From positions 1 through 64,000 of IMG/VR virus record IMGVR_UViG_3300021255_000122: 64,000 nucleotides of DNA; one strand, given 5' to 3'. This stretch comes from a virus. Taxonomy: Duplodnaviria; Caudoviricetes. Positions within the stretch are counted from its first letter, which is position 1, and every line of letters begins with the position of its first letter. A program made the translations under genes and the position numbers. Below, in pieces: positions 3,620 through 18,155 of the stretch. The notes below the pieces were generated by a model that was not told the DNA's origin, made no database searches, and saw only the letters and a list, made by a program, of their open reading frames with translations.

Positions 3620-4180
3620 TTAATAGTCAAAATCTTTATTCAAAGCCTCTTGTAATGAAATCGCACCGTAGTTTCCTGCTTTCCAATTGTTGATAAAATT
3701 GTATATCGCCCACGCAAAATCTTCGGTTACTATGTTGCTTTTCTTTTTGTACTTTTCAAATTCGGCATTTGCGTCATACCCTAACACATCGTTGCAAAGT
3801 TGGTCGCAAATTTCGTTGTACACGTTTCCGTTGTGGCCTTTCACCCAATTGTATGTTATGTGCTTAATGTTTTTATTTTCAGCACGTACCTTGCGCCAAA
3901 CCTTAAACAAATCTTCGTTGCTTTTTTGTTGCCATTGTCCAGACAAAGTATTAAGTGCATATTGCGAATCGGAATAAATATCCACCTCGTCGGCATCATC
4001 GGGCAATCGGTTAAAAGCCGCAATAATCGCTTTTAGTTCGGCGCGGTTGTTTGTTTCCTTTGTAATCTTGTACGCATTCCTTTCGATTTCCGCGTTTTCG
4101 CCATTCAATATAACATAGGCAAACGCACCCTCGTCGTGTTGTTTTGAATACGCACCGTCCGTATAAATCGTATATCTCAT
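3620..4180 (-). CDS. rnhA: ribonuclease HI
   Basis: Motifs YTDGA, TNNRAEL, YSDSQY, WVKGH..NVYNEICD give the RNase H catalytic D-E-D-D set. Confidence 0.92.
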   Translation of the reverse strand: MRYTIYTDGAYSKQHDEGAFAYVILNGENAEIERNAYKITKETNNRAELKAIIAAFNRLPDDADEVDIYSDSQYALNTLSGQWQQKSNEDLFKVWRKVRAENKNIKHITYNWVKGHNGNVYNEICDQLCNDVLGYDANAEFEKYKKKSNIVTEDFAWAIYNFINNWKAGNYGAISLQEALNKDFDY

Positions 4181-4274
4181 AATTGTTATCTATTTATATA
4201 TATTTATATTTATAATTATATCTTTAGAATTTTATTATGTAAAAACATACATAGTTTTGATTTTTGAACTTTGG

Positions 4275-4722
4275 ATATTGCACAAAATTCCCAAAGTACA
4301 TTTTTACTGTACTTAGGAATTGTGCGTTTCTGGTAGTCCGTCATCCGTCACCCCATCAACCACACACAATAGCGAATTGCAAACACTATTGATACCTGTC
4401 CTTCCCGATTTGCTTTCGGTCGCACAAGCGGACAAGACACTTTTTCAAGCGTACCCTCACTTACTACCTTAGTGCTATCCCTCTTGGTAGTTTAATGTCC
4501 TTGGAATCGAGGTGTGACAACCGATACAATTTTCTCTTTCGGTATTTATGGACGTTCAAATCCCAAGTAAGTGAAATGGGAAATGCCAACCTTATAAAAG
4601 CAACAATCCCTATCAAGTAGTGCGGATACTTAATAGGGAAATGTCTATATAAAGTTGGCTCAAATGCCGTACTTTCCAACAATGTCCGTGAATCCTACAA
4701 GTTCCGCACACTTAATTCACGG
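4275..4722 (-). ncRNA. candidate ~440-nt structured RNA or long leader with complementary hairpin loops
   Basis: Starts right after the promoter at 4725-4732; multiple stems; loops GUGCGGA and UCCGCAC are complementary; no convincing ORF. Confidence 0.5.
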
Positions 4723-4724
4723 TG

Positions 4725-4755
4725 CAAAGATAGAACAAAGTTTTAAACACACAAA
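4725..4755 (-). promoter_or_regulatory. Bacteroidota housekeeping promoter (-33 TTTG, -7 TATCTTTG)
   Basis: Reverse complements of caaagata (4725-4732) and caaa (4752-4755), 19-nt spacer. Confidence 0.8.
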
Positions 4756-4780
4756 TGTTTGCCCCGATTTTTAATGTGTT

Positions 4781-4945
4781 TTAACATTCATCATCCCTAT
4801 CGTAGCAATCATCATCTTCGTAATCGCCATTGTGGTATCGCATGTTTGCGGCAAACGCTTCACATTTCATACAATTCAATCCGCAAAGATTCTCGGAACG
4901 TTCGCAAATGCGTTCCAGTTGTTCGTCGGATAAAATAAATGCCAT
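4781..4945 (-). CDS. small acidic Cys-rich protein, 54 aa (MAFILSDEQLERIC...)
   Basis: Read by hand; fills the gap. Confidence 0.5.
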   Translation of the reverse strand: MAFILSDEQLERICERSENLCGLNCMKCEAFAANMRYHNGDYEDDDCYDRDDEC

Positions 4946-15539: not shown

Positions 15540-15866
15540 AAAATTAGTCGGCTGGTTGCTGCCTGTAGGCCGTTGCTGCTCACTCGCCCCACCGTTAGGT
15601 GGTTTTAACGCCGCATAATATAAAGCGTTGCGAGGCCGAGAAAATCTGGCTTTTGTGTTTGTTTACAATTCCCTGTTAAGGTTCACGACCTACGTCGGCG
15701 GCATGTAAGTACTGCAAAAGCGGTTCTGCTCGATTTGCATTCCCTTCGGGTATCATGCTCCGCGCATATCCCGTTGGCAATTTAAGACCTCCCTGAAAAA
15801 CTAATTCCATGTACTCGCTTGCTTGAGGGTGATGCTTGCGACCCTGTGGGGTGATTTCTTAAATCT
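15540..15866 (-). ncRNA. candidate ~330-nt structured non-coding RNA
   Basis: Follows the -7 element at 15871-15878; GC-rich island in AT-rich surroundings; many nested stems; no ORF of 60 aa or more. Confidence 0.6.
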
Positions 15867-15870
15867 GATG

Positions 15871-15878
15871 CAAAGATA
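15871..15878 (-). promoter_or_regulatory. Bacteroidota -7 promoter element TATCTTTG
   Basis: caaagata on plus. Confidence 0.65.
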
Positions 15879-16930: not shown

Positions 16931-17504
16931 TAACTACTTGATTTATAGCGTTTTACGTGTTGTTTTGCTAAAAGGTACGTTAATTGCTTGATTTACAAAG
17001 AGTTACGATTTTTCGCGCTTTAATAGTGCTTCATAAAGTATTGAAAATCAATTATTTAGCGCAAACACCTTTGTTATTTAGAATTTTCTAAATAAGGAAA
17101 ACACCTAATTTATTGCACAAATTTACTTTAAATGTGCAAAACGTGAAACAATTGTTTTTGTTACGTGAAACATTTATAAAACTTTGCTTTCAAAAATAGT
17201 TTTCCTTTTCTTTTATATTCTTTTCTTTTCCCTTACTTAATTATATTATGCTTTATTATATCGTATCTTTATATTTTATATTTATATTCTTTAGTATTGC
17301 TTTATATATAGCTTTATTATAATATATATTTATTATTATAATTATATTATATTATGTAATGCGCTTTTTTCGCGTTTTGCGCCCGTCGTTTGCATCCGCT
17401 TCGCACTTCATGCCGTGAAATATGGCATAACACCAGAAATAAACGTTTTTATTTTTGCAAGACGAACGTTTTCAAAACGTAACACGTTGAAAATCAAAAC
17501 GTTA
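16931..17504. promoter_or_regulatory. four IHF-consensus sites (WATCAANNNNTTR) at 16931-16943, 16981-16993, 17046-17058 and 17492-17504
   Basis: All four match the consensus exactly; two on each strand. Confidence 0.6.
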
Positions 17505-17830
17505 CGCAATTTTAGAAGGGGGAGGGGGTAAAACTCCCAACTTCTTTGTGTGGTGCATACCTTTTATTTTGAAAAAAAGAAAATTTCCGAAAAAAAGAAA
17601 AATTTTCAAAAACGAAAAACGAAAAATTTCAAAATTCTTGTATAATATAAATATTAATATTATTTTTGTCAAGTCTAAATATATTATATATATATTATGA
17701 TGTTTTGTTTTACGTGCGCGTGCGCATACGTGCGTATATATATACATATTAATTAATATCTTAATAATAAGGAAATCTTTATATATAAAGAAACCTTTAT
17801 AAATATTAAGAAATTCTAATATTTTGTTGT
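17260..17830. other. divergence point: AT-rich low-complexity tracts flanking a G-tract, A-tract repeats and an RY tract; candidate origin or packaging/terminus site
   Basis: gaagggggagggggtaaaactccc at 17515-17538; tandem gaaaaaaagaaaaattt; tacgtgcgcgtgcgcatacgtgcgtatatata; gene orientation flips here. Confidence 0.5.
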
Positions 17831-17835
17831 TTTTG

Positions 17836-17866
17836 TTTGAATATTAAAAATAATTATATACTTTTG
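17836..17866 (+). promoter_or_regulatory. Bacteroidota promoter (-33 TTTG, -7 TACTTTTG)
   Basis: 19-nt spacer; heads the rightward operon. Confidence 0.8.
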
Positions 17867-17909
17867 TGGTTGAATTTATATATATTTTTATTTTAAACTT
17901 TATATTTTT

Positions 17910-18155
17910 ATGAAAGCAAGATTATTACGAAAGTTACGGCGTAGATATTCGCGCAAGTATGCGATTCGCCGTTGGTCTGGTGGTTGGTGTGTTGTATGGG
18001 GTGCAAGCGACCTTGACCGTTTGCGTTATTCCACCCTTGACCGTGCAAAGATTCAATTTCGCGAAATGGTGCGTGACGACATTATGGCTTACGTTGTCAA
18101 GTTCCGCAACCGTCTTTTTTACTTGAACCGCAAAGTTACTTATTACCCTTGGTAG
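17910..18155 (+). CDS. small basic hypothetical protein
   Basis: First ORF after the promoter; Arg/Lys-rich. Confidence 0.7.
   Translation: MKARLLRKLRRRYSRKYAIRRWSGGWCVVWGASDLDRLRYSTLDRAKIQFREMVRDDIMAYVVKFRNRLFYLNRKVTYYPW

Follow-up and report, generated by a model that had tools for sequence, protein, structure and literature searches.

In the guanidine-IV (mepA) riboswitch the loops of two hairpins kiss, and this contact competes with the lengthening of the second hairpin to a full intrinsic terminator (PMC11611296). The leader RNA described here, from a phage of the cattle rumen, also holds a kissing hairpin pair whose second member is of terminator type. However, guanidine-IV loops are conserved and bind guanidine, whereas those of the phage leader are hypervariable and joined by seven strong Watson-Crick pairs that need no ligand. 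With hypervariable loops, the leader lacks the conserved loop nucleotides that make up the guanidine-IV ligand pocket.

The c4 RNA of phages P1 and P7 depends on complementary segments on the same strand of a leader, with specificity types that differ by matched changes. In P4, same-strand complementarity between leader sites and the CI RNA (seqA/seqB/seqC) controls premature termination before the replication genes, and specificity types again arise by matched changes (PMC4825925). These systems use linear targets, three sites and RNase P processing and are tied to lysogeny, whereas the rumen phage leader uses two hairpin loops and its genome gives no evidence of lysogeny. A CI-type layout with two target sites (seqA and seqC) was excluded for the leader, in which two loops, L1 and L2, are the only complementary sites.

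The loops of RNA I and RNA II, the regulatory pair of ColE1, are 7 nt long and fully paired. RNA II is a structured RNA of ~500 nt whose 5′ stem-loops form kissing complexes, in a replication system that involves RNase H and is free of an initiator protein (PMC11012335). RNA I is made from the opposite strand, whereas both loops of the phage locus lie on one strand, and the adjacency of its RNase H gene reflects synteny. Finally, ROOL and GOLLD are large, phage-borne, rumen-associated structured RNAs with covarying kissing loops. In this they resemble the RNA of the locus, which differs from them in matching no Rfam 15 family, in being smaller and in being fused to an mRNA-type leader.

Bacteroidota are the dominant phylum of gut and rumen, yet next to nothing is known of gene regulation in their phages, for which the locus offers a clean, testable case. 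The window, the whole stretch of DNA analyzed here, covers 64 kb of a virus record that is 80,227 bp long, has terminal repeats and is 38.7% G+C. It encodes a large terminase, a DnaB-like primase-helicase, a clamp-loader-like ATPase, a beta clamp, RecT and SSB, and holds no tRNA or tmRNA. A 304-aa resolvase-family protein is the sole recombinase seen, and no integrase or plasmid-maintenance genes were seen. The RNA locus, on the minus strand, is flanked by a 54-aa Cys-rich ORF (4781-4945) and the RNase HI gene and belongs to a replication block in which RNase H is followed by SSB and, further on, by RecT and the beta clamp (Table 1). All related DNA and RNA come from bovine or other ruminant gut samples. 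The promoter arrangement, TTTG followed after 19-20 nt by TAnnTTTG, consists of what we take to be Bacteroidota motifs, after the consensus of Bacteroides promoters. The source is a cattle-rumen phage of Bacteroidota.

The original prediction described this locus as one structured RNA of ~440 nt with two kissing hairpins, set in series with an AT-rich tract and an RNase H gene, and proposed either an R-loop primer or an undescribed large non-coding RNA. Much of this was borne out: the minus-strand promoter, the two hairpins with their complementary loops and the serial arrangement of AT-rich tract and RNase H gene are all in place. The single RNA is instead two independent modules, a leader of ~150 nt and a type-A domain of ~320 nt.

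Table 1. Features of the RNA locus, by position in the window, and loop pairs of the leader family.
Feature	Position	Strand	Remarks
RNase HI gene, 186 aa	3620-4180	-	Pfam PF00075, E 2.4e-26; 354 homologues; syntenic neighbor of the RNA
AT-rich tract, from RNA to RNase H start codon	4181-4244	-	no Bacteroidota -7 box on minus strand
Type-A RNA domain, ~320 nt	4245-4570	-	covariation in window, L011, L034 and L040; RNA-library contigs
RNA-library contig	4256-4441		188 nt, depth 151, 97% identity
RNA-library contig	4331-4531
RNA-library contig	4379-4622
Leader, ~150 nt	4571-4722	-	behind conserved Bacteroidota-type promoter
U/C-rich tract ending CAC	4571-4584	-	directly after rod; presumed termination zone
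Terminator-like rod, ~29 bp	4585-4659	-	basal stem 4648-4659 with 4585-4596, middle stem, hairpin H2 4608-4638
H2 apical loop L2, UCCGCAC	4620-4626	-	exact complement of L1, 7/7 Watson-Crick
Variable spacer	4660-4685	-	small hairpin possible; includes first bases of rod 5′ strand; read by eye
Hairpin H1, RNA 5′ end	4686-4722	-	from fold; 7-nt loop L1 GUGCGGA 4703-4709; stem pairs kept
Promoter	4725-4755	-	-33 TTTG 4752-4755, 19-nt spacer, -7 box TATCTTTG 4725-4732
Loop pair of window, L002 and L029			GUGCGGA/UCCGCAC
Loop pairs of other homologues			GUUGCAG/CUGCAAC; GGGCUGG/CCAGCCC; GUAGCGG/CCGCUAC; AUGGCGG/CCGCCAU; GUCGCAC/GUGCGAC; GGGCAGU/ACUGCCC; GUUGCGG/CCGCAAC; GUGGGAG/CUCCCAC; GUGACGG/CCGUCAC; GUGCUGG/CCAGCAC

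The leader and its loop pair

Exact-motif scans, the upstream ORF, the neighbors of RNase H homologues and one degenerate pattern yielded 15 non-redundant leader homologues. The same promoter arrangement precedes every one of them, directly before the first hairpin, and would place the transcript start of the window near 4721. The second hairpin, H2, was also listed as terminator-like in a scan of the window. It carries the complementary loop, as predicted, although it does not stand free and instead forms the tip of a long terminator-like rod that ends before a U/C tract. This rod forms in 16/16 sequences, and its basal stems are unrelated in sequence between lineages yet always paired. A fold of 550 nt reaches -155 kcal/mol (z = -5.4 relative to shuffles).

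In most homologues a tract rich in U or in pyrimidines follows on the 3′ side of the rod. The tract is weaker and mixed A/U in some ORF-bearing loci, such as L015 and L023, and its U run is broken in the window (AUUUCCCAUUU), where termination may be poor. In five lineages (L015, L017, L023, L026 and L030) an ORF starts ~5-25 nt past the rod or tract. The start of an ORF so soon after a rod and pyrimidine tract marks the module as a promoter-proximal leader with the build of an intrinsic terminator. Most homologues have, as read by eye, a spacer hairpin, weak in L011, L033 and L040, that overlaps the 5′ side of the basal stem and could possibly act as an anti-terminator.

The strongest signal lies in the two loops. 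The 15 homologues hold 11 different loop pairs, each of them 7/7 Watson-Crick (77/77 base pairs), with two-sided changes at all seven loop-loop pairs and zero wobble. Leader pairing is kept in 94.7% of alignment cells, against 30-43% when partners are slid; the unpaired loop-loop cells belong to the L023 row, which was misaligned by MAFFT and is by eye also 7/7 complementary. None of 500 shuffles reached the leader covariation score. The predicted kissing duplexes have energies of -8.7 to -13.4 kcal/mol. Stems H1 and H2 also contain G-U pairs which, together with the frequent G-U pairs of type A, place the RNA on the minus strand, that of the promoter.

Loops diverge faster than the rest of the leader. 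For instance, L031 and L035 differ at 71% of loop positions, 0% of stem positions and 11% of the remaining columns, and the corresponding values for L033 and L040 are 29%, 0% and 4%. Relatives from the same metagenome may carry different codes, as do L014 and L030, L033 and L035, and L037 and L041. This combination, loops outpacing stems and flanks and codes differing within one sample, is the pattern of a specificity determinant and not merely of a structural contact. Thus, judged by sequence comparison, the loop pair looks like a private pairing code that varies from phage to phage. Such a code, always complementary within a locus, implies that the leader of each phage has no pairing partner but itself, either in cis or as free copies of its own. 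The 11 natural alleles amount to ready-made compensatory mutants of a putative terminator that guards the replication genes.

Other targets and other readings of the leader were sought in the window. No third target site for the loops was found: L1 and L2 are the only complementary sites, and extra 7-mer matches occur at chance level. The plus strand has no -7 box between 4560 and 4760, and so no RNA I-like promoter over the leader. The 72-aa ORF at 4464-4682 is not conserved as a protein and has no Pfam match.

Type A and the alternative cargos of the slot

Type A was compared in four divergent sequences only (window, L040, L034 and L011; 70% mean column identity), among which pairing holds in 94.7% of cells and two-sided changes occur at 14 pairs, against 0-4 in slid controls. 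The shared parts are a long-range stem, the ACUACC/GGUAGU and UGUCC/GGACA helices, further hairpins, a G-rich stretch and a 3′ hairpin. Both helices had been read from the window and are kept by compensatory changes. The 3′ hairpin (4275-4326) is likewise present in 4/4 sequences, with an inner stem that is different in each and covaries. The predicted G-rich stretch (~4338-4360) is conserved and mostly single-stranded. Only the long-range stem proposed between UCACUUAC and GUAAGUGA fared unevenly, being intact in L040 and reduced to 6/8 pairs in L034 and ~3 bp in L011. A covariance model of type A, R1, matches the four members and a truncated fifth (L032).

No reading frame is shared by the four type-A loci, whose longest frames agree in neither strand, frame nor position. 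The domain is matched in RNA libraries: over a 4-kb stretch compared with four RNA-seq runs, type A alone bears substantial contigs, which stem from three studies of bovine metatranscriptomes. One contig (4379-4622) runs on for 51 nt into the H2 hairpin of a relative whose loop is different again, and therefore crosses the U/C tract. The depth of 151 reached on type A, with the adjacent RNase H gene uncovered, argues for a specifically abundant RNA; contigs were matched at a threshold of 85%, at which the flanking genes of relatives are perhaps too diverged, they carry neither ends nor strand, and gaps such as that of run X7 (4442-4780 and the flanking genes) have no evidential weight. Type A is read here as a stable structured non-coding RNA that is independent of the leader.

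This independence is visible in recombinant loci. L029 joins a window-type leader (92% identical) to the type-B cargo found in L019, L002 joins a window-type leader (94%) to a type-C cargo, and L011, L034 and L040 join diverged leaders to type A. Such recombinants of leader and cargo identify two modules that are exchanged independently. At least three unrelated RNA cargos fill the slot downstream of the leader, and R1 matches none of types B, C and D. Type B (L019, L029, L038 and L047, the last with its tail only) has compensatory changes of its own. Types C and D (L002, L031, L033 and L035) have short motifs in common, in a MAFFT/alifold alignment too poor for use.

The slot may also hold protein genes. 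The main alternative cargo is an ORF of 228-253 aa with a double winged helix, weak DnaD-like and replication-initiator PHROG matches and a poor fold model (AlphaFold, pLDDT 45). RNA and ORF are mutually exclusive: the ORF is missing from three complete RNA-bearing genomes (G000, G001 and G002) and present in a complete genome that lacks the RNA (G004). In L046 ORFs occupy the slot. In more distant relatives the same place is taken by a smaller winged-helix gene, preceded by 4-5 iteron-like repeats and a hairpin leader of another kind. RNase H lies downstream in all arrangements, sometimes after a DUF559 endonuclease gene or a small ORF. Since it follows the slot whatever the cargo, RNA or protein gene, its adjacency to the RNA is a matter of synteny. 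The AT-rich run before its start codon need not be special to this locus; it includes a sigma-70-like match (4215-4243) of doubtful relevance in a Bacteroidota-type host.

Both modules appear to be new. The Rfam comparison foreseen in the original prediction, which included ROOL and GOLLD, gave no family match for the window or 10 homologous loci, and the alternative of an undescribed large non-coding RNA is supported, with a covarying fold, no conserved ORF and matching RNA-library contigs. In Rfam 15 the window has no match at gathering thresholds, an 801-nt query at E<10 returned only AfaR (25.6 of 100 bits) and a snoRNA, and the 10 loci gave only a tRNA elsewhere; ROOL, GOLLD, mepA/guanidine-IV and the Bacteroid* motifs do not match. 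No published description or Rfam family was found for either module. BLASTN of the 801 nt against 50,697 phage records gave no match. In IMG/VR an RNase H probe led to nothing confirmed, and a core 18-mer and a gapped type-A pattern returned the L011 contig only. Among 185,579 species genomes no leader was found; the sole match to the H2 pattern is an ordinary terminator in a Gammaproteobacteria MAG. Other candidates were also set aside: exact loop 17-mers in L003-L009 are chance matches, and L012 and L013 share the upstream 54-aa ORF without the RNA. The cargos represent new families of large structured RNAs that are expressed in the rumen, and their alternation with a protein gene is a rare natural swap of RNA for protein.

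Termination, replication and rival readings

On balance, and with moderate confidence, the locus is read here as a kissing-loop terminator gate before the replication genes, operated by a private code and followed by a stable RNA that stands in for the winged-helix protein. Host RNA polymerase would initiate at the conserved Bacteroidota promoter and make H1 first, then the long rod with its U/C tract, built as an intrinsic terminator. L1 of H1 would pair with L2 at the tip of the rod, and this contact would decide whether the rod closes down to its base. Closure would in turn decide between a stop at the U/C tract and read-through into the cargo and the RNase H and SSB genes. The type-A cargo, as a stable non-coding RNA, would take over the role of the winged-helix ORF and supply in RNA form what that protein supplies, presumably replication control or initiation. 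If so, the cargo could show how DNA replication is begun or timed in such phages. Should the code set specificity, it would account for the way in which close relatives that share a host population avoid cross-regulation, and it could provide orthogonal RNA switches for Bacteroides engineering.

The same code has been considered as the basis of a trans-acting immunity like that of P4 and P1, which seems unlikely. Here the terminated 150-nt leader would build up as a small RNA, pair with nascent leaders of the same code, whether of its own phage or of a superinfecting one, and force termination before the replication genes, so that the code would define an immunity or incompatibility type. The rapid divergence of the loops, their differences within one sample and their unbroken Watson-Crick pairing (77/77) are what such a determinant would leave, and P4 offers a precedent in CI RNA, which is processed from the leader, pairs on the same strand and terminates transcription before replication genes (PMC4825925). 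However, each locus has two complementary sites and no third target, and in a folded free leader both loops may be engaged in cis already. A resident prophage state lacks support, given that no member occurs in the 185,579 species genomes; nor were integrase or plasmid-maintenance genes seen beside the single resolvase-family protein.

Improbable, too, is a reading of the 3′ domain as accessory cargo, carried in a variable hot spot downstream of an early or middle promoter, where it would counter host defense or take over a host factor and have no link to replication. A hot spot without shared function would also fit the unrelated RNAs and the homing-endonuclease-like gene in or next to the slot. 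Indeed, the slot holds unrelated RNAs, the winged-helix ORF, small ORFs and DUF559 endonuclease genes, and leader and cargo recombine freely. Against this, its place within a conserved block of replication genes and its strict alternation with a single protein family suggest a shared role.

An R-loop primer acting with RNase H was one of the two readings of the original prediction. In its ColE1-like form, the RNA would be a pre-primer: its G-rich part would form a persistent RNA-DNA hybrid near the AT-rich tract, RNase H would trim it to a primer, the 5′ kissing hairpins would control primer folding, and the RNA would replace an origin-binding initiator protein. The points in its favor are circumstantial. 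The locus lies in a replication block (RNase H, SSB, RecT and beta clamp), the protein that alternates with the RNA has a double winged helix, gives weak DnaD-like and initiator PHROG matches and is missing from complete RNA-bearing genomes, iteron-like repeats (4-5) precede the related small winged-helix gene of more distant relatives, the G-rich stretch is conserved, and the loops are 7 nt and fully paired as in RNA I and RNA II. However, RNase H accompanies every kind of cargo, ORFs too can directly follow the same leader, and three unrelated RNAs occupy the slot. GC skew follows gene direction with no switch at 4.5 kb, the only switch of the arm lying near 17 kb. Abundance in an RNA library fits a stable RNA better than a transient primer, and the leader lacks an RNA I-like promoter on the opposite strand. 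Taken together, these points make a ColE1-like primer quite unlikely. Rather doubtful as well is a bolder combination in which the loop pair serves as an RNA address code that lets each phage lineage alone control transcription into its replication genes, for incompatibility or immunity among co-infecting Bacteroidota phages, and the large RNA replaces an origin-binding initiator protein, the whole being a phage counterpart of the ColE1-type RNA-primed replicon with self-encoded kissing control.

Head-to-tail assembly through the loops, to give dimers or closed rings like those of phi29 pRNA or cages like those of ROOL and GOLLD, is very unlikely: the covarying kissing loops of ROOL and GOLLD did prove intermolecular (10.1101/2024.12.08.627333), the position of L2 at the far end of a long rod would, from the fold, make contact in cis geometrically demanding, and the RNA is abundant in a rumen RNA library, but no Rfam ROOL or GOLLD model matches, and a leader that frequently opens directly onto an ORF, and that recombines separately from the large domain, acts like the leader of an mRNA and not like a piece of an ornate particle.

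The leader is single-copy in the genome of the window, in which no further kissing leaders were found. L029 carries a second, shorter leader with a separate loop code.

Leaders and neighbors of the slot in related phages

A close relative, L029, carries an additional kissing-loop leader, the promoter-proximal RNA in which two 7-nt loops are complementary and form a pairing code. This shorter leader has the loop pair GUACGAG/CUCGUAC; thus, a single genome can carry two leaders with differing codes.

In two more distant relatives, the same genomic slot is occupied by a repeat and winged-helix arrangement. Behind the iteron-like repeats, whose spacing is ~21-25 nt, lie a promoter and a long hairpin leader of another kind, then a winged-helix gene whose product is 182-185 aa in length, and RNase H. 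Some relatives (L015 and L019) encode two consecutive RNase H-family genes, and a tRNA gene lies a short distance downstream of those in L019; the window has no tRNA. In L031, two genes downstream of a type-D RNA cargo, a phage gene encodes a protein that contains the C-terminal domain of RNA polymerase alpha.

Features in the window and in related phage loci (L-numbers)
Feature	Location	Strand	Detail
ORF-free, promoter-driven stretch	window 15540-15878	-	additional to type-A locus; begins behind TATCTTTG
Bacteroidota -7 box TAGTTTTG	window 4252-4259	+	strand opposite to type A
Shorter kissing-loop leader	L029:425-540	+	5' of 208-aa ORF
Iteron-like direct repeats	L020:1652-1755		n=5
Iteron-like direct repeats	L025:43-132		n=4
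tRNA gene	L019:3959-4032	+	Rfam, 61.7 bits
Additional RNase H-family gene	L015:3304-3933		directly behind first
Additional RNase H-family gene	L019:3135-3560		directly behind first
120-aa phage protein	L031:1625-1984	-	PF03118, E 1e-9

An opposite-strand box at the 3' end of type A

The TAGTTTTG box lies within the A-rich 3' tail that the ~320-nt type-A RNA of the window shares with L034; its counterpart in L040 is imperfect, and the window box lacks a -33 TTTG. Transcription from this box could yield an RNA antisense to type A. The contig from the bovine rumen RNA-seq run X7 ends at 4256.

Other regions of the window

No kissing-loop leader precedes the additional ORF-free stretch, which bears no obvious likeness to RNA types A-D. 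Its 3' end is a hairpin followed by a T-run. The AT-richest kilobase of the genome (window 17000-18000, 26% G+C) is the point where the two gene arms diverge. Cumulative GC skew turns there, which makes this kilobase a candidate origin or early control region of a more conventional kind.
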